Part shown: piece after piece, positions 1 to 7,279 of the stretch
Numbering within the stretch: position 1 is the stretch's first letter
Layout of the letters: each line of letters opens with the position of its first letter
NCBI GenBank assembly: GCA_031409775.1
Contig: JANNXY010000041.1
Location: forward strand, 1-47,490
DNA: 47,490 nucleotides
Source of the DNA: a bacterium
GTDB taxonomy: Bacteria > Patescibacteriota > Minisyncoccia > Phycocordibacterales > CAIZIN01
Direction of reading: 5' to 3'
The notes under the pieces: generated by a model
Told to the model about the DNA's origin: nothing
The model's input: only the letters and a program-made list of their open reading frames with translations
Databases searched by the model: none
Program-made: the position numbers and the translations under genes

Positions 1-94
1 ACTAAATGCAACATACTCAACACCTTTCATTTCCTAGGAGTGCCAGAGAGTTATATAGCAACCTGAGATACGGGAAGGTGACTCAATCGAGAGA

Positions 95-1495
95 TTGGGG
101 TTTTTGAAGTGGGTGGGGAGGGTTTTGTGCAACAAAGCCCTGGCCGATGGCACTGTCCAGGACATCAAACTCGAAGATGAGCAAGGAGAATTGGACTTCA
201 TCATGAACCGCTTTCCTTTGCGCATGCGCAAGGCAGTGGCTACGGACAAGTTCACCGATTTCCCGGAGCATCTCGTGAAAATGCGTGAATTCGATCTCGA
301 AGAAGACAGTTTAGATTTGATTCCAGACCATCATGTGATCGAAGTCGGCAAGACCAAGAAAACCAAATTTATCCTCGATAAAGTACCCGCAGAAATGACC
401 GGACTTGAGGAGGGTGATACGGTGCTTATGCCGCTCGGAGGTTCGGGCGATTATTTGGCCTTTGCTATGTCGGTGCGAGCGGAACAGATCGGAGCCAAGG
501 TGCTCCGAATTCCACCTCGCCGTATCAAGGAAGAGCGCGGTAGGCTCGTGAATGTAACTGTCGTAGGTGTTTCCGATGATCATGATATTATCAAAGCACT
601 TTACGACGGCGAACCTGGTAGCTTCTATCCAGTCACCGCTCGGCAGCGGGATATGATTGAAGCCCGAGAAACATTCCGAGCCCGTGAACATATGCAGCAG
701 GAGCGCAAAAGCTGTGCCATGCGTGTGCGTCAGAGGGGTATCGGTGAGACATTTGTCCGTGCTGATGGCCTGTTCCCACAAGGATCGATCGAGAAACGCT
801 TCGACGAATTGCTCGCTGATGACGATCTACTCGATCTGATTACACGCAAGGAAAAACGACTTGAAACAGAGTTAGCGAAGTTTCTCGAAAGGATCCCCGT
901 ATATAACAAAGTCTTTGGATCGATCGAGGGTGTGGGCCCAGTTATTGCGGCTGGCATCATCTGCACCGTTGGCGACATCAGGCTCTTTGTGCGGAGCGGG
1001 GGCAATCTCCGTTACCGTGCAGGCAAGCTAAAGAAGTATTGCGGTGCTTGTCCGGGGCCAGATGGGAAGCTTCTCAGGAAAACAGCAGGGAAAACCTTGC
1101 CTTATACTCCAGGACCTCGGCAGGCGATATACAAATTCGCCCAGCAGATGATCAAGCGCCCAGGTTCTGATTGGGGAGTGCGTTTAGTAGCCAACAAGGC
1201 GTATTATGCTGCGAAGCATCCAATCGAAACTTTGGTTATCAAATTGCCTGCAGGAAGTACCAAAGAGTATTTGATCGATGGCGTTACTTGTCGCAAGGCA
1301 GGTACTGGTCATGAGCTTTGGGATGGTGCCGAGTGGCACAAAGTCGTTGGCAAGCGTAAGCATTTCAAGGGTCACCTGCACAAGATGGCCATCTGGAAGA
1401 CGCTGACCGAGTTCGTCGAGCATCTGTATGATGAATGGACGAGGCTCGAGGGGATCATTCCCGGTCAAGGTGGTGGTGAGGCTGCAGCGGCCTAG
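95..1495 (+). CDS. Tas-like (TIGR-associated) RNA-guided protein: IS110/Nop-family RNA-binding domain preceded by a putative RuvC-like (TasR-type) region; start codon uncertain
   Basis: C-terminal half has IS110 Transposase_20/Nop-like motifs (IEGVGPVIAAGIICTVGDIRLF, KLKKYCG, RQAIYKF, GHLHKMAIWK) after a predicted coiled coil (REHMQQERKSCAMRVRQ). No P-x-x-x-x-S-G catalytic-serine loop after YCG (reads YCGACPGPDGK). Directly followed by a dual 9-nt-spacer array. TTG start at 95 with an in-frame stop at 56-58. Confidence 0.8.
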   Translation: MGFLKWVGRVLCNKALADGTVQDIKLEDEQGELDFIMNRFPLRMRKAVATDKFTDFPEHLVKMREFDLEEDSLDLIPDHHVIEVGKTKKTKFILDKVPAEMTGLEEGDTVLMPLGGSGDYLAFAMSVRAEQIGAKVLRIPPRRIKEERGRLVNVTVVGVSDDHDIIKALYDGEPGSFYPVTARQRDMIEARETFRAREHMQQERKSCAMRVRQRGIGETFVRADGLFPQGSIEKRFDELLADDDLLDLITRKEKRLETELAKFLERIPVYNKVFGSIEGVGPVIAAGIICTVGDIRLFVRSGGNLRYRAGKLKKYCGACPGPDGKLLRKTAGKTLPYTPGPRQAIYKFAQQMIKRPGSDWGVRLVANKAYYAAKHPIETLVIKLPAGSTKEYLIDGVTCRKAGTGHELWDGAEWHKVVGKRKHFKGHLHKMAIWKTLTEFVEHLYDEWTRLEGIIPGQGGGEAAAA

Positions 1496-1509
1496 GTTTG
1501 GAAAAATTG

Positions 1510-2499
1510 GAGTGTCCTTAGATGAACATGCTACTATGCTGCTTCTGAACACCTCTTCCCGTAGTGTGCAACAACCACGCTACGGGACCCTTTCAAAGTA
1601 TTTAATTATTATTGAATCTTTTGAAAGGGTGGGCGGTCTAATGAATATATGTTTCTATGGTGGGTCTGACCACTCATCCCCAATTTCGCCTCGGCGAGTG
1701 CCGGTGTTCTAATAGCCGCCTGTTTCTATCCGCGCATTGAACACCAGCATCTTTTTCAGTTCTTTATACAATTTGGTGACGTAGGCTTGGTTAGAAATGT
1801 TTCTATTTGGTTCCTGCTTACGTTACCAACTACTTTGGCGATGTGGTCTATGACGTGCCTGTTTCTACCTGGCCCCTGACCACACCGTCAGAAATTTGAG
1901 ATGGGCTAACAGCAGCATGATTCTAAGCGGATTCTGCCCATCTCACCGCGACGACTCACCTCGTCGCGGCCTCTTTAGAGTATTTTTCGTCAAGAATTTT
2001 CTGAAGAGGATGTGTGCTTATGGACCAATGTTTCTAGATATTGTATGCACACATTCCTCTTTGCTCTTTGTACAATTTGGTAACGTAGACTTCTCGCCGT
2101 CTGATTCTATTCGATGACTGTTTACGTTACCGACTACTTTGGCGGTGTGGTCTTTCGGGGGCTTGATGCTTAAGTAAAAATGACTACACCGCCAGAAATT
2201 TGAGATGTTTTAACAACATCGTGTTTCTGAAGTCTGCGTGAACACCTCTCCTCCAGCATTTTGAGTAATCGACGTGCTGGAGGCCCTTTCAAAGGATTCA
2301 ATACGGATTGAGTATTTTGAAAGGGTGGGTGGTCTAGAGAAAGCTTGTTCCTAGAGGGCGATTGACCACCCATCCGACCCTTTGCTGGTGTTCTATGTAG
2401 ATCGTGTTTGTAAACATGAAGTGGACACCAGCATCCCTTTCAGTTCTTTGTGATTTGGTAGGCTTGTGCCGTAGTGTTTCTGTATATGGGCTGCTTATC
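1510..2499 (+). ncRNA. TIGR-like stem-loop guide RNA array, 13 units, each with two 9-nt spacers
   Basis: Each unit: 5' stem, CTA/CTT (TTA once), 9-nt spacer A, 8-nt loop repeat (TGTTTCTA consensus), 9-nt spacer B, TG, reverse complement of the 5' stem. Spacer A starts at 1520, 1641, 1712, 1789, 1851, 1909, 2020, 2093, 2155, 2213, 2337, 2396 and 2466. The 3-9-8-9-2 spacing holds in all 13 units. Confidence 0.9.
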
Positions 2500-2502
2500 T
2501 CC

Positions 2503-2536
2503 GCGGAGCGGGAAGTTTTCTTCCCGCTCCGCTTTT
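2503..2536 (+). terminator. Intrinsic terminator closing the array
   Basis: Perfect 13-bp stem GCGGAGCGGGAAG-tttt-CTTCCCGCTCCGC followed by TTTTGTATTT. Confidence 0.9.
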
Positions 2537-2597
2537 GTATTTATGTCTTTTCTTAAAATTTGCCAAAAAATCCATAATAGGTTAGTATTTGGGAACT

Positions 2598-2807
2598 ATG
2601 GTAAACCACATGAGACATACGCGGGCACATACCGCGAATCGCAGAAGCCACCATGCCCTGTCCAAGCCAGGCTTGGCTATTGACGATGCAGGCAATGCTA
2701 CACTAAGGCATCATATGAACCCTGTTACCGGCATGTACCGCGGCAAGCAGATCATCGATGTGAACAAGAAGACCGCAGTCAAGGCAAAGGCAGAAAAGGT
2801 TAAGTAA
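2598..2807 (+). CDS. rpmF: 50S ribosomal protein L32
   Basis: MVNHMRHTRAHTANRRSHHAL...LRHHMNPVTGMYRGKQII; L32 pattern without Zn-ribbon cysteines; upstream of nusB-rnc; ATG at 2598 preferred over TTG at 2589. Confidence 0.9.
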   Translation: MVNHMRHTRAHTANRRSHHALSKPGLAIDDAGNATLRHHMNPVTGMYRGKQIIDVNKKTAVKAKAEKVK

Positions 2808-2877
2808 CCTTGCTGCTTGTTGGTAATTAGATTGTTGCCGTATTTGTTTTGTGATACACTCTTAGCAAGCTATAACT

Positions 2878-3816
2878 ATGGCAAACAGGCACCTTTCCAG
2901 ATCAGTGGTTCTCCAAACACTCTTTGAGTGGGATTTTATGAGTCTCACGAGAGATAGAGCGCTGTCTGCCCTCACTCGCAATATCGTCGAATTCGCACCT
3001 GATATGGGCGATGAGTCGTTTATGACACATTTGTTCGACGGTGTCGTTTCCAAACATTCTGACTTGGACAACATAATATCCAAAGCTGCACCAGAATGGC
3101 CTCTGGCCAAGATATCGAACGTGGACCGCAACGTGCTCAGGCTTGGACTCTATGAGCTGCTGTTTGCAGAGCGCAAAGAAGTCCCACCCAAGGTTGCGAT
3201 AAATGAAGCGATAGAGCTTGCGAAGACATTTGGCGGAGAGAATTCTGGCAAATTCGTCAACGGTGTACTCGGTGCTGTGTACAAAGAAATAGGTGAACCC
3301 GGCAAAGAAGAGGTCTCTAAACGTAAAAAGATCGAGGACATTCCATTTGAAAAGATGCCGATACAGAAGCTCGTAGGTGGAGTCATATACGCCGAACACG
3401 AAGATCAGATCTACCTCGCACTAGTACATGATGTGTTTGGACATTGGACTCTTTCCAAAGGTAAGGTCAGACCAGAGGAAGATGTCTATGATGCGTTAGT
3501 GCGCAAAGCCAAGGAGGAGACAGGTTTAGAAGTTACAAGGGAAGACGAGCTTGGTAACAACGAATATGTTGCCTCTGACCCAACACTCGGCAAGATCCGC
3601 AAGCAGGTCCACTACTTCCTCGCCAAAGCTGAATACAAAGAACTGCATTTGGAAAAGAAAGGCGGACTCGACGATGCCAAATGGTTCCTAATGTCCGAGA
3701 TAGTTGACCTAAATCTATACAATGATATTGTGCCTATATTTACCAAAGCCGTAAACATATTACTAACGAAAGACCATGAAAGAAATCAAAGAATTCGAAG
3801 CAACACTGCAGAATAA
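2878..3816 (+). CDS. nusB: Transcription antitermination factor NusB fused to a C-terminal NUDIX-fold domain
   Basis: RHLSRSVVLQTLFEWDF, DRNVLRLGLYEL, AINEAIELAKTFG...KFVNGVLG; C-terminal WTLSKGKV...EE...LVRKAKEETGL Nudix-box-like motif. Confidence 0.93.
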   Translation: MANRHLSRSVVLQTLFEWDFMSLTRDRALSALTRNIVEFAPDMGDESFMTHLFDGVVSKHSDLDNIISKAAPEWPLAKISNVDRNVLRLGLYELLFAERKEVPPKVAINEAIELAKTFGGENSGKFVNGVLGAVYKEIGEPGKEEVSKRKKIEDIPFEKMPIQKLVGGVIYAEHEDQIYLALVHDVFGHWTLSKGKVRPEEDVYDALVRKAKEETGLEVTREDELGNNEYVASDPTLGKIRKQVHYFLAKAEYKELHLEKKGGLDDAKWFLMSEIVDLNLYNDIVPIFTKAVNILLTKDHERNQRIRSNTAE

Positions 3817-4468
3817 ATTTACAGACAAGAATCTACTAGAACAGGCCTTTATCCATAGGTCATATTTGAATGAGAACAGAAATGTAAGCAGGGAGCATAA
3901 CGAGCGCCTAGAATTCCTGGGTGATGCAGTGCTCGAGCTAGTAGTCACTCGCTACCTATACGACAGATATCCCGAAAAGCCCGAGGGAGATCTCACCGCA
4001 CTCCGCTCGGCTCTCGTAAACGCTGTAACACTTTCCCAAGTAGCAAGCGAATTACGTGTTAACGACTATATACTGCTTTCCAAAGGCGAGGCCAAGGACA
4101 TGGGTAGGGCTCGCAACTATATACTCGCAGATGCGCTCGAAGCGATCATCGGGGCGATTTACCTGGACCAGGGCTACGACAATGCAGAGAAATTTATACA
4201 CAAGAATATAACTGTGCGTATCGATGAAATAGTAAAGAAAAAGTTGTGGATCGATTCTAAAAGTAAATTCCAGGAAATAGCTCAGGAGCGCGTCGGTATC
4301 ACACCAGCGTATCGCACAGTGCGGGAATCAGGTCCAGACCATGACAAGATTTTCACAGTTGGACTCTACCTCGCGGACAACCTCGTATCCGAAGGGTCTG
4401 GTAAAAGCAAGCAAGAAGCCGAACAAGAAGCCGCGAGGGTTGCGCTGCATGATAGCAAATGGAAGTAG
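3776..4468 (+). CDS. rnc: Ribonuclease III
   Basis: NERLEFLGDAVL signature, ADALEAIIGAIYLDQG, C-terminal dsRBD (SGPDHDKIF, GSGKSKQEAEQEAA). Confidence 0.98.
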   Translation: MKEIKEFEATLQNKFTDKNLLEQAFIHRSYLNENRNVSREHNERLEFLGDAVLELVVTRYLYDRYPEKPEGDLTALRSALVNAVTLSQVASELRVNDYILLSKGEAKDMGRARNYILADALEAIIGAIYLDQGYDNAEKFIHKNITVRIDEIVKKKLWIDSKSKFQEIAQERVGITPAYRTVRESGPDHDKIFTVGLYLADNLVSEGSGKSKQEAEQEAARVALHDSKWK

Positions 4469-4475
4469 GTCGCTC

Positions 4476-4569
4476 GGATTATTGTCTCGCGGAACACGAA
4501 AATTATTTGCTAATAATTTTCTCTGTCCGGCGCCGTCGCGCCTCCCAGGTTTCCGCTCGACAACAATCC
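4476..4569. repeat. Intergenic nested inverted-repeat element (REP/MITE-like or structured RNA)
   Basis: GGATTATTGTCTCGCGGAA (4476-4494) pairs imperfectly with TTCCGCTCGACAACAATCC (4551-4569); inner hairpin GAAAATTATT-tgct-AATAATTTTC. Confidence 0.55.
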
Positions 4570-4615
4570 TCGCTCAGATGTAAAAACTACAGAGGTGCTG
4601 TGTTATAATCATCTT

Positions 4616-4912
4616 ATGAATAACAAAAGATATTGGTTGAGGGGAGGAATAGCAGGACTTGTCTTTAATGCGATATTTACTTTACCTGGAATTATTATTG
4701 GCATTTTTGCGCATGATGTCAGCGATGCATTCGGAACGGTTGCCGAAAAGATCTTCAATTTCTTTGGTACGATTTTACTCTACATTCCTTTAGGAAAAGA
4801 AGGTTTTCAGTTTCCTCTTTTGTTTGTCATTAGTTTCGGGTTTACCTCTATTGTCGGAGCGGTTATTGGCTGGATTTACGGAAAGATTAAAAATAGAAAC
4901 AATACTAACTAA
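4616..4912 (+). CDS. Small membrane protein, unknown function
   Basis: ATG 4616 a few nt after TGTTATAAT; 2-3 hydrophobic segments; KRYWLRGG...GAVIGWIYGKIK. Confidence 0.7.
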   Translation: MNNKRYWLRGGIAGLVFNAIFTLPGIIIGIFAHDVSDAFGTVAEKIFNFFGTILLYIPLGKEGFQFPLLFVISFGFTSIVGAVIGWIYGKIKNRNNTN

Positions 4913-4940
4913 TTTAAAGGGATCGAAATCGACCACTTTA

Positions 4941-5015
4941 AAACCCATCGAATTCGATGGGTTTATCCCTCTCCTGCATTTAGGAGAGGGATCGAGACGT
5001 AGTCCGAGGGTGAGG
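4941..5015. repeat. REP-like palindromic element
   Basis: Perfect 24-bp palindrome AAACCCATCGAATTCGATGGGTTT, then hairpin ATCCCTCTCCT-gcattt-AGGAGAGGGAT and tail TCGAGACGTAGTCCGAGGGTGAGG similar to 33894-33916. Confidence 0.65.
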
Positions 5016-5035: not shown

Positions 5036-7279
5036 ATGTATCTCAAATCCCTCGAAATCAACGGCTTCAAGTCATTTGGCAAGAAAGTGGCCTTGGAATT
5101 TACTTCACCCATTACATCTGTGGTGGGGCCGAATGGTTCCGGCAAGAGTAATGTTGCAGAGTCATTTAGGTTTGTACTCGGAGAGCAGTCGATGAGGTCC
5201 ATGCGTGGCAAACGTGGAGAGGATCTGATATTTAATGGGTCGGATGCAGGTCAGCAGAGTCTGTCTAGACTGAACCGTGCATCGGTCAAGCTTGTTTTCG
5301 ACAATAGTAAAAAAATCCTACCAATCGATTTCGACGAAGTATCGCTCGAGCGCGTTGTGCATCGAGATGGCGTCAATGAATATTTCCTCAACGGATCCCA
5401 GGTTAGACTCAAAGACATTCAGGAATTGCTCTCCCATGCCCATATCGGGTCATCGGGACATCACATCATCTCCCAAGGTGAAGCAGACCGGATACTGAGT
5501 GCCAATACCAAAGAGCGCAAGAGTATGCTTGAAGACGCTCTGGGGTTGAATGTATTCCAGAACAAGAAGCTAGAGAGTCAGAGGAAGCTAGAGAAGACTA
5601 CAGAGAACATAAAGCAGGTAGAATCCCTACGAAGGGAGCTCGCACCACATTTGAAATTCCTCGGCAAACAGATGGAAAAGGTGGAGAAAGCCGAGACACT
5701 CCGAGCCGACCTCCGCCAGATCTACAAAGAATATTTGAAAAGGGAAGAATTGTATTTAATGAATTCCAAATCCTCTATCGAAGCTGAATTGTCTAACCCC
5801 GAATCAGAATTAGCAGAGCTTGCGGGCAGGATAGAAATGATCCGCAAATCGCTAACTGTATCCGAAGGTGAGAATGCCCCCAAACTCGAGCTTATAGAAG
5901 CAGAGCGCAAGTTCCGTGAGAAGCAAAATGAAAAGCAAAAGCTGTCGCACTCTATAGGACGTCTAGAAGGTGAGTTGTCATCATTACATAGGATGATCGA
6001 ACGCAGTCAGAGGCAGGTAGAGGAAGAGAGTCACCACATAGTTCCGCTAGTAGAGATAGAGAAAATAGTAAGAGAAATAAACCAAGATTTCGAAAAAGCC
6101 GAGAAGGAAAACTCTATAGAATTGTTTAAGTCTGCATTTGGCAAGATGCGTGATGTATTCAACAACTTCATAAGTAATCACAAAGTAAAACCAGTCGTAA
6201 GCAGTGGAGAGAATTATCAAGAAGAAATGGATAAGCTGCAAAAAGAGAAAGAAAGAACACTTCTAGATCTAGAGCGGGTAGGTAGCGAGGAGCAGGAATT
6301 GCAATCGAAGATAAGGTCGCTCAATCATGAAATAGAGGTAAAAAGTAAAGACAACCTCGATGCTGAGCGAGAAATGTTCCAGATCATGTCTAGACAGAAC
6401 GAGCTACAGAGCCAGACCAACCTGCTCCGATCCAAAAAAAACCAGCTCGCTCTCGAACACGACGAATGGAAAAGGGAAGTGAACGAGGCGTATGTGCTCA
6501 TCGGTCGGGAGATTATGGAATACGAATCATTGCAGATCGAATACTCTAACGAGGATCGTAGCATCCAGCACGATAGACGTAGACAGATAGAGAAGGTCAA
6601 GATCCGCATAGAAGAGCTAGGTATCGGTGGTATAGAAGAGCTGACCAAAGAATATAGAGAAGCGCAGGAGCGTGATGGATTCCTAGCGCGCGAAGTGGTA
6701 GATCTGGTCGCTTCGGGTGATGATCTCCAGATACTCATAAAGGACCTCGAAGAAAAGATAAATACAGAGTTCAAGTCAGGTATAGAAAAGATAAATACAG
6801 AATTCCAGAAATACTTCGAGCTCCTGTTTGGTGGAGGCAAGGCATCTCTCAAGGTTGTAAGGGAAGAAGCCTCCGACGCTGAAGCTATGGAGGCCGAGGG
6901 AGGCTTGCCCGCCGAAGCTTCAGCGAAGGCGGGGATTGATATCTCAGTAGATCTGCCAAAGAAGAAAGTGAAAGCACTTATGATGCTCTCTGGCGGCGAA
7001 AGGGCACTGACGTCTATCGCACTGCTGTTTGCCATGTCGCAGGTCAATCCTCCGCCGTTTATAATCCTCGACGAGACTGATGCCGCGCTCGACGAGGCCA
7101 ATTCCAAGAAATATGGCGACATGATCGAAGCTCTAGCCAAGTACTCCCAGCTCATCGTGATCACCCACAACCGCGAAACTATGTCTCGCGCGGGCATTAT
7201 CTACGGAGTTACTATGATGTCTGGGCTTTCCAAGCTCCTCTCTATCAAATTCGACGAAGCTGTTGCTGTAGCTAAGTAA
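5036..7279 (+). CDS. smc: SMC-family chromosome segregation ATPase (short form)
   Basis: MYLKSLEINGFKSF, Walker A GPNGSGKSN, Q-loop IISQG, signature LSGGE, Walker B FIILDETDAALD, VITH; long coiled coil; only 747 aa. Confidence 0.95.
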   Translation: MYLKSLEINGFKSFGKKVALEFTSPITSVVGPNGSGKSNVAESFRFVLGEQSMRSMRGKRGEDLIFNGSDAGQQSLSRLNRASVKLVFDNSKKILPIDFDEVSLERVVHRDGVNEYFLNGSQVRLKDIQELLSHAHIGSSGHHIISQGEADRILSANTKERKSMLEDALGLNVFQNKKLESQRKLEKTTENIKQVESLRRELAPHLKFLGKQMEKVEKAETLRADLRQIYKEYLKREELYLMNSKSSIEAELSNPESELAELAGRIEMIRKSLTVSEGENAPKLELIEAERKFREKQNEKQKLSHSIGRLEGELSSLHRMIERSQRQVEEESHHIVPLVEIEKIVREINQDFEKAEKENSIELFKSAFGKMRDVFNNFISNHKVKPVVSSGENYQEEMDKLQKEKERTLLDLERVGSEEQELQSKIRSLNHEIEVKSKDNLDAEREMFQIMSRQNELQSQTNLLRSKKNQLALEHDEWKREVNEAYVLIGREIMEYESLQIEYSNEDRSIQHDRRRQIEKVKIRIEELGIGGIEELTKEYREAQERDGFLAREVVDLVASGDDLQILIKDLEEKINTEFKSGIEKINTEFQKYFELLFGGGKASLKVVREEASDAEAMEAEGGLPAEASAKAGIDISVDLPKKKVKALMMLSGGERALTSIALLFAMSQVNPPPFIILDETDAALDEANSKKYGDMIEALAKYSQLIVITHNRETMSRAGIIYGVTMMSGLSKLLSIKFDEAVAVAK
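6869..6933. repeat. Pair of GC-rich palindromic units in frame within smc
   Basis: GCCTCC-gacgctgaagctat-GGAGGC and CCCGCC-gaagcttcagcgaa-GGCGGG, translating as ASDAEAMEA...LPAEASAKAG just upstream of the GIDI...LSGGE region. Confidence 0.65.

Follow-up and report, generated by a model that had tools for sequence, protein, structure and literature searches.

The stretch of DNA analysed here, hereafter the window, is 47,490 nt long and comes from a bacterium of the Candidate Phyla Radiation (CPR). It carries a stem-loop array of the TIGR (tandem interspaced guide RNA) type, with 13 dual-spacer units located 3' of a gene for a Tas protein. Faure et al. 2025 (PMC12045711) describe arrays of this type in main-text passages, and so do Xu et al. 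2026. In the window, at three places, neighbouring units are separated by two hairpins that hold no spacer, a GC-rich one (H1) followed by a long AU-rich one (H2). These hairpins are RNA elements within the architecture of the CPR stem-loop TIGR array, and neither decayed guides nor chance palindromes. Through H2, the long guide RNA precursor probably carries its own signal for being cut or stabilised.

The interrupted tas gene and its two arrays

The locus is split by an insertion sequence (IS) and lies partly in the window and partly on C20, another contig of the same genome. Its features are listed below; units were placed by our own unit map and by a model built on them, R1.

C20:2272-2299: promoter-like site (TTGACA, 16 nt, TAGGAT), just 5' of seven units
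C20:2307-2916: upstream array, seven units with two H1-H2 pairs, stem types ordered as in the window but every spacer different
Window 1-139, no strand assigned: right end of the IS, a multi-copy element interrupting tas, with its terminal inverted repeat GTGCAACAAAGCC at 127-139
140-1495, + strand: 3' part of tas (Tas, Nop/IS110-like domain), the first ~30 codons being on C20
1512-1552, + strand: U1, first unit after tas, stem type a, somewhat degenerate (6-bp stem with a mismatch, loop TGCTACTA, R1 score 38.2 bits)
1627-1679, 1698-1750, 1773-1829, 1834-1892 and 1897-1945, + strand: U2 to U6, stem types b, c, d, e and f
2008-2056, 2077-2133, 2138-2196 and 2202-2248, + strand: U7 to U10, stem types g, d, e and a
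2323-2375, 2383-2433 and 2457-2499, + strand: U11 to U13, stem types b, c and d
2503-2542, + strand: intrinsic terminator closing the array, canonical, with a 13-bp GC stem and then TTTTGTATTT

Judged by its sequence, the protein is a Tas with a predicted Nop/IS110-like RNA-binding domain, as belongs to stem-loop TIGR-Tas systems. A profile made from 18 Tas homologues matches PDB entry 9MTY (E-value 1.8e-27), the structure that Faure et al. 2025 (PMC12045711) report for TasR, and Pfam Transposase_20 matches the window Tas weakly, with an E-value of 0.018 that falls short of the cut-off of that family. The open reading frame (ORF) in the window lacks the 30-45 N-terminal residues conserved in the Tas family, and the missing N-terminus is encoded at C20:3018-3113. 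The break in the gene comes at about codon 32, after which an IS bounded by the terminal inverted repeats GGCTTTGTTGCAC is inserted, the junction region being made of window positions 1-150 and C20 positions 3018-4138. On C20, the N-terminal piece of Tas is directly followed by the left end of the IS, with the same inverted repeat as in the window, and then by a DDE_Tnp_1 transposase ORF. A target-site duplication, CTGGCCGATGG, is found at 140-150, and a copy of it is present at both IS junctions. In assemblies of four DNA runs, a 1101-nt contig spans window positions 1-139 at ~10x the depth of the remaining window, and the C20-like contig and this high-depth repeat were all that stood out.

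The window and C20 are therefore one locus, composed of a promoter, an upstream array, an IS-interrupted tas gene and, in the window, a downstream array. A reading of the C20 array as an orphan second array was given up when C20 proved to carry the N-terminus of Tas and the junction with the IS. The effector gene is not intact at this locus; its intactness is required for function, not for classification. C20 also carries a second DDE transposase gene, at 481-1617. A scan for promoters and terminators revealed no promoter-like site between tas and U1, so that co-transcription of tas and the downstream array would be the simplest reading.

The 13 units of the window are found in 1510-2500, and in each of them a stem of 6-15 bp encloses exactly 29 nt, namely T[AT], a 9-nt spacer, TGTTTCTA, a second 9-nt spacer and T. 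Two variable spacers of a length within 8-12 nt, flanked by short conserved motifs, thus surround a loop, as in the described systems, and R1 recovers 13/13 units. Stems differ in sequence between units yet stay palindromic, with 91.5% of the cells paired where shuffles give 65.1%. Both sides are altered in 8 of 10 pairs, and none of 500 shuffles attains the covariation score. A chimeric U10, joining stem type f to type a, was considered and dropped, as the unit fits type a. Nine of the linkers measure 4-23 nt, and the three long ones (74, 62 and 74 nt) consist of exactly H1 plus H2. Single-stranded linkers bear a CUU-type pyrimidine motif (CTCTT, CTTTTTCAG, CTCTTTG and CCCTTTCAG).

Units with homologous stems, in both arrays and in duplicated blocks, bear unrelated spacers (U2 and U11 for instance), which suggests that spacers are replaced much faster than stems and linkers. 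A search for spacer self-targets in the organism's own genome, with up to 3 mismatches, gave no signal, since the published geometries yielded 28 and 17 matches and the controls 14 and 23; no spacer-target signal was found within H1 or H2 either.

Paired hairpins between guide units

The six hairpins of the window are the following:

1557-1587, + strand: H1a, GC-rich spacer-less hairpin, 12 bp, interior of 7 nt, -19.4 kcal/mol, z -5.96
1588-1629, + strand: H2a, long AU-rich hairpin, 11 + 7 bp, tetraloop, 5' base CCCUUUC, -17.1 kcal/mol, z -5.88
1946-1969, + strand: H1b, GC-rich hairpin, 9 bp, interior of 6 nt, -15.7 kcal/mol, z -5.17
1970-2009, + strand: H2b, long hairpin, 11 + 6 bp, 5' base CCUCUUU, -15.9 kcal/mol, z -4.50
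2250-2283, + strand: H1c, GC-rich hairpin, -21.0 kcal/mol, z -7.02
2284-2325, + strand: H2c, long hairpin, 11 + 7 bp, -18.9 kcal/mol, z -5.28

An initial annotation of the window, made from its sequence, had placed hairpins at these coordinates, after U1, U6 and U10, and all six were recovered by folding and by our own unit map. Each was compared with 200 dinucleotide shuffles: z-scores ranged from -4.5 to -7.0, and in no case did any of the 200 shuffles do better. Five of the six also appear in the list of inverted repeats (I10, I23, I24, I2 and I3); H2b is unlisted, and its stem contains, by our own reading, several G.U pairs. A search of window positions 1-5000 against Rfam, with E-values up to 1, matched no family.

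The three H2 copies of the window are built alike, as AU-rich hairpins with a pyrimidine 5' base, CCYUUY, in which 11 bp are followed beyond a 1x1 mismatch by another 6-7 bp and closed by a tetraloop. Their stems are long, as the annotation had it, and slightly shorter than the 18-20 bp it gave, with 17-18 bp in the window; an H2 stem on C20 has 19 bp. H1, H2 and the stem of the following unit adjoin without any free base. The sharing of the H2 end with the next stem, also part of the annotation, was found again in the unit map, where the last 3, 2 and 3 bases of H2a, H2b and H2c respectively belong to both. H2 adjoins or overlaps the stem of the next unit in all five copies of this genome (three in the window, two on C20), and does likewise in two of the distant loci analysed below, L136 and L158. 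The five H1-H2 pairs occupy constant slots, between stem types a and b three times and between f and g twice, and the units flanking them bear different spacers.

The annotation had further proposed that structure is kept as sequence drifts, and this is what the copies show. H1a and H1c are unrelated in sequence yet both are strong hairpins, located between identical flanks (GAACACCTCT ... CCCTTTCAAAG), and H1b differs likewise from its C20 counterpart (9 bp vs 12 bp). The five H2 copies are 97.7% paired, with 3 pairs changed on both sides, 5 on one side only and 9 invariant, and with tetraloops that vary (UAUU, CGUC, ACGG, AUAA and GCUU). A model built from these five copies alone, R2, was run on the 0.8-Mb genome and matched nothing beyond the five in the arrays, the next match having an E-value of 0.3. 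All five score higher on the + strand, with 61.3 vs 49.5 bits for H2a, 52.4 vs 32.4 for H2b and 58.4 vs 46.2 for H2c.

Are these hairpins units that have lost their spacers and loop? They stand in line with the units and their stems are of similar size. However, neither H1 nor H2 holds any trace of the unit interior (T[AT]-N9-TGTTTCTA-N9-T), their own interiors are much shorter (4 nt for H2), R1 matches none of them, and H2 has a conserved sequence of its own across loci whose unit loops differ. Decay from a tigRNA (TIGR guide RNA) unit is thus refuted for H2, and extremely improbable for the H1/H2 pair as a whole.

On C20, at ~2650-2676, a linker bears a small GC hairpin (TCCGCC...GGCGGA) at the place where the window has a unit of type d (1773-1829). 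This suggests that spacer-less hairpins are gained and lost within these arrays.

H2-like hairpins in distant tas loci

We analysed 160 loci around Tas homologues of 30-41% identity, and two more from genomes of the same order (162 in total). Fifteen were removed for identical tas DNA, leaving 147 non-redundant loci, and all comparisons below rest on Tas proteins that are 30-41% identical. Loci L001-L006 were left out for their overlap with L007, L008 and the window. Closer homologues of Tas, sharing 52-65% identity, are on record (P0003-P0007), and a scan of genome contigs with a single Tas protein as query gave no match. Hairpins were called H2-like if they had a stem of at least 14 bp, a loop of at most 16 nt and a 5' arm opening with at least 6 pyrimidines. 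Their density was as follows:

Within 2 kb of tas: 256 hairpins in 505 kb, 0.51 per kb
In the far flanks: 23 hairpins in 409 kb, 0.056 per kb
Inside the gene: 10 hairpins in 169 kb, 0.059 per kb

H2-like hairpins within 2 kb of tas are present in 115 of the 147 loci, which runs counter to the outcome that the initial annotation had named as its own refutation, absence from homologous arrays. The mirror-image control, with a purine 5' arm, counted 77 hairpins near tas and 36 far from it. Their positions concentrate in two zones, one 200-300 nt ahead of the tas match and the other 100-300 nt past it, and 49 loci have H2-like hairpins on both sides of the gene. The length of the element is set within narrow bounds (quartiles of 17, 19 and 20 bp, and of 42, 45 and 48 nt), and its median loop is 4 nt. 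Compared with the other hairpins of the same loci, 69% vs 17-23% reach at least 17 bp, with medians of 18 vs 15 bp. CTT is found in 211 of the 256, inside the opening 10 nt of their pyrimidine run. At an E-value of at most 0.01, R2 itself matches on the tas strand in 26/82 and in 34/80 loci.

The orientation of these hairpins was examined with a strand-symmetric detector, by counting G.U against A.C on the tas strand. G.U exceeded A.C in 170 hairpins, the reverse was true of 63, and 40 were equal; by locus the count was 79 vs 32, figures that give a tendency and not a probability, as related loci are not independent. A first count (852 vs 129) was rejected as biased, its detector having permitted G.U on the scanned strand only.

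The order of the two hairpins recurs as well. Taking as H1-like partner a GC-rich hairpin of at least 6 bp situated 0-4 nt from the long one, we found it ending 5' of H2 in 74 of 256 cases and starting 3' of it in 17 of 256, compared with 108 of 1280 for random nearby positions. In L013, L016 and L107, H1 begins with (T)CCCG and finishes with CGGGA, thereby resembling H1a. L136 has the layout of the window, that is tas, one unit, H1, H2 and then a unit whose stem overlaps H2. In L158, H1-like hairpins lie directly 5' of H2, and the next unit overlaps H2 as in the window: at 5480-5580 the 3' arm of H2 (AGAGGGTAC) also supplies the 5' strand for the stem of the next unit, the partner strand being 38 nt downstream. 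Since one strand serves both, H2 and the unit are mutually exclusive folds in L158, which suggests either ordered folding or refolding after a cut. Finally, the L009 array is a regular repeat of unit, unit and long hairpin.

The architecture captured by R1 was found in few of these loci, most clearly in L034 (=L099), L045, L054, L060 (=L119) and L038. For the remaining ones a looser unit detector was used, which counted 799 units on the tas strand vs 177 on the other; because of this high background, distances from H2 to the nearest unit are only rough.

Taken together, the presence of H2-like hairpins in 115/147 loci, the recurrent H1-before-H2 order, the bias for the tas strand and the pairing kept among this genome's own copies support selection on RNA structure in the orientation of the array. 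The initial annotation had seen in H1 and H2 processing signals, stability elements or a scaffold, and in H2 a possible RNase III substrate. Selection at the RNA level lends partial support to this view; its RNase III part is compatible with the data, H2 being a candidate substrate.

An arrangement of this kind could also arise if the hairpins were passive folding insulators, never cleaved, that prevent mispairing between the similar stems of neighbouring units. Indeed, the minimum-free-energy fold of the whole array pairs related stems of different units over long distances, H1 keeps its pairing only, and H1, H2 and the next stem are contiguous. Insulators, however, would need neither a base sequence and a length conserved across such distant Tas proteins nor a fixed H1-before-H2 order, and most junctions do without one. 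This makes the insulator explanation quite unlikely.

Another explanation would have H1 act as a weak terminator or attenuator and H2 as a promoter or anti-terminator, so that sub-arrays are transcribed separately. In its favour, the same-order genome G028 has a unit, a true terminator, an AT-rich promoter-like stretch and then further units, and terminator-promoter pairs are found inside the L009 array. At this locus, however, no terminator-like or promoter-like site was detected at any H1 or H2, the only strong terminator being the end of the array. H1 is followed by CCCUUUC or CCUCUUU and no U tract, in contrast to the real terminator of the array, which is canonical. Separate transcription of sub-arrays is for these reasons highly improbable.

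A possible role in cutting the guide precursor

We propose that tas and the array are read as a single long transcript of the + strand, in which H2 would be the entry site of a double-strand-specific endonuclease, most likely the cellular RNase III. A cut at H2 would split the precursor into sub-arrays and would free a tas mRNA with one unit per end. The new 5' end would fall a few bases before the next unit, so that a 5'-to-3' trimmer of the RNase J type could reach that unit. The new 3' end would be capped by H1, of which pairing alone is conserved, and which may act there as a clamp stopping 3' exonucleases. For this segmentation model as a whole, we estimate a probability of roughly 0.42.

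Several observations are compatible with RNase III. The stem lengths of H2 are tightly distributed across the family. The genome has a complete rnc gene, it encodes RNase J, and at 93% completeness neither RNase E/G nor RNase Y was detected.

3776-4468, + strand: rnc, complete, RNase III catalytic domain (Pfam Ribonucleas_3_3, E-value 8e-42) and double-stranded RNA-binding domain (dsrm, E-value 3e-16)

The array's terminator and the start of rnc are 1.24 kb apart (2532 to 3776). The initial annotation had mentioned this proximity and allowed that it might be coincidental; among the 147 loci, just 2 have rnc in their flanks, and its nearness here is best seen as a coincidence. Upstream of rnc, window positions 2878-3816 hold a single ORF that fuses NusB and Nudix (Pfam NusB, E-value 3e-34; NUDIX, E-value 5e-14), the last 41 nt of which are shared with the beginning of rnc.

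A look-alike of H2 is also found in ribosomal RNA. In a genome of the same order, R2 matches helix 45 of the 23S rRNA, which is extended there by ~50 nt (L177, G010:C4:13336-15101, minus strand), and each arm of the extension matches H2a at 17 of 20 positions, counted by eye. From its sequence this extension looks like an intervening sequence. Stems added to 23S rRNA are excised by RNase III according to the passages available of PMC8708148, and the helix 25 and helix 45 regions are those in which intervening sequences are examined in PMC2801512. In the 23S rRNA gene of the organism itself (G000:C37, 2515-3293), ~780 nt stand at a place where the gene of the relative has ~226 nt, which suggests a large insertion. 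Large insertions in rRNA genes have often been reported in CPR bacteria.

A number of points weigh against the segmentation model. A bacterial RNase III substrate is a continuous double-stranded stem of about two helical turns, and the stems of H2, 17-18 bp in the window and 19 bp on C20, are near the lower end for efficient cleavage. In the window, H2 is present at only 3 of 12 junctions, the remaining units being 4-23 nt apart, and H2 cannot for this reason be the general maturation site. Among the relatives, 32 of the 147 loci have no H2-like hairpin at all, and R2 has no match in G028 and G098, two same-order genomes that bear Tas. The locus itself may have escaped selection, since an IS splits tas. 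TIGR arrays were judged to be without an extended RNase III-type duplex in the main-text passages of Faure et al. 2025 (PMC12045711), where stem-loop arrays are not singled out. R2 also matches outside TIGR loci in 5 of 100 relatives without a detected Tas (one match in a 23S rRNA helix, one between tRNA genes, two intergenic and one inside an ORF), so that the H2-like element is not specific to TIGR, and some of these matches may be ordinary hairpins.

This last point, with its rRNA helix and intergenic matches, is also what a DNA-level or selfish origin would lead one to expect, the hairpins being then either palindromic insertion elements of small size or palindromes bound by a protein, and spreading to arrays and to other sites such as helix 45 of 23S rRNA. 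That GC hairpins come and go in linkers, as the extra one on C20 illustrates, would fit as well. Against such an origin, the fact that G.U outnumbers A.C on the tas strand points to RNA, arms that covary are unlike a sequence-specific protein site, no target duplication was seen around H1 or H2 in the window or C20 sequence, and in its own genome R2 finds the five array copies only. We consider this origin very unlikely.

The mature ends of tigRNAs raise another point against cleavage at H2 as well as an alternative to it. In the main-text passages of Xu et al. 2026 (10.64898/2026.09.09.750476), mature tigRNA ends are placed at a single-stranded CUU motif at the stem base, the benefit of flanking sequence is left unexplained, and the nuclease is left open, as it also is by Faure et al. 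2025. H2 might then serve to display or to mask a CUU-type motif for the maturation nuclease of stem-loop tigRNAs or, alternatively, for Tas. If displayed, CCYUUY would stand at the stem base as it does in unit stems; if masked, the junction would stay uncut and two units would remain linked. The CTT found in 211/256 H2-like hairpins and the same motif in the single-stranded linkers of the window agree with this idea. It leaves unexplained, however, the tight stem of ~19 bp, the tetraloop and the presence of an H1 partner on the 5' side only, and no nuclease of such specificity is known. On balance, a role confined to the CUU-type motif appears unlikely.

In a bolder version of the segmentation model, H2 would be a portable cassette for RNase III that CPR bacteria employ in helix 45 of 23S rRNA as well as in TIGR loci. 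A pair of H2 elements would bracket tas, whose mRNA would be excised with a unit at each end and capped by H1, and H1 would be a rapidly replaced cassette. We see only a small chance that this is so. If it were true, guide maturation, tas mRNA stability and perhaps Tas self-loading or autoregulation would be coupled in one step, and the turnover of H1 would mirror how arrays gain and lose elements.

Segmentation by H2 would have parallels in other systems. The RNase III stems of pre-rRNA and of 23S intervening sequences (PMC8708148, available passages) similarly provide about two turns of double-stranded RNA between functional RNAs of one transcript. Once such stems are cut, the upstream RNA has a stable hairpin at its 3' end, and we propose the same for H1-H2; H2, whose cleavage would be analogous, is shorter than typical rRNA stems and than intervening sequences of 100-200 nt. 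The inter-cistronic hairpins of phage T7 are RNase III processing stems too. Polycistronic box C/D small nucleolar RNA (snoRNA) precursors, processed by the RNase III homologue Rnt1 and considered here through passages of PMC12045711, hold several box C/D-like guides in one precursor, with spacer-less hairpins between guides as endonuclease entry sites, followed by exonuclease trimming up to the bound protein. These snoRNA systems are eukaryotic, unlike the present locus. Moreover, Rnt1 recognises AGNN tetraloops, from which the five H2 loops differ. In type II CRISPR systems, again through PMC12045711, the host RNase III matures a guide array by way of double-stranded RNA formed between the precursor CRISPR RNA and the trans-activating RNA (pre-crRNA:tracrRNA), as is proposed here. 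The CRISPR duplex forms in trans and at every repeat, whereas here it would form in cis and at some junctions only.

The array and its Tas are of an already known kind, and what appears to be new is the H1-H2 module, the structure and conservation of which are well supported, its function being our proposal. As in the linkers described for stem-loop TIGR arrays, the module belongs to the same system, sits at the same place between units and has a CUU-type motif at a stem base. Published linkers are described by their length, and by CUU content only below 20 nt (Xu et al. 2026 and PMC12045711, main-text passages), whereas the long linkers found here are two ordered hairpins, one of them conserved across the clade. 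The main-text passages covered make no mention of hairpins of the H1/H2 type, and supplements, figures and the web catalogue may show more. For array finders, which leave long linkers as unannotated gaps, and for the engineering of compact multiplexed tigRNA arrays, the module is of relevance. A conserved, strand-specific element of set length, which some three quarters of the sampled loci carry next to tas, bears on how stem-loop tigRNAs leave their precursor.

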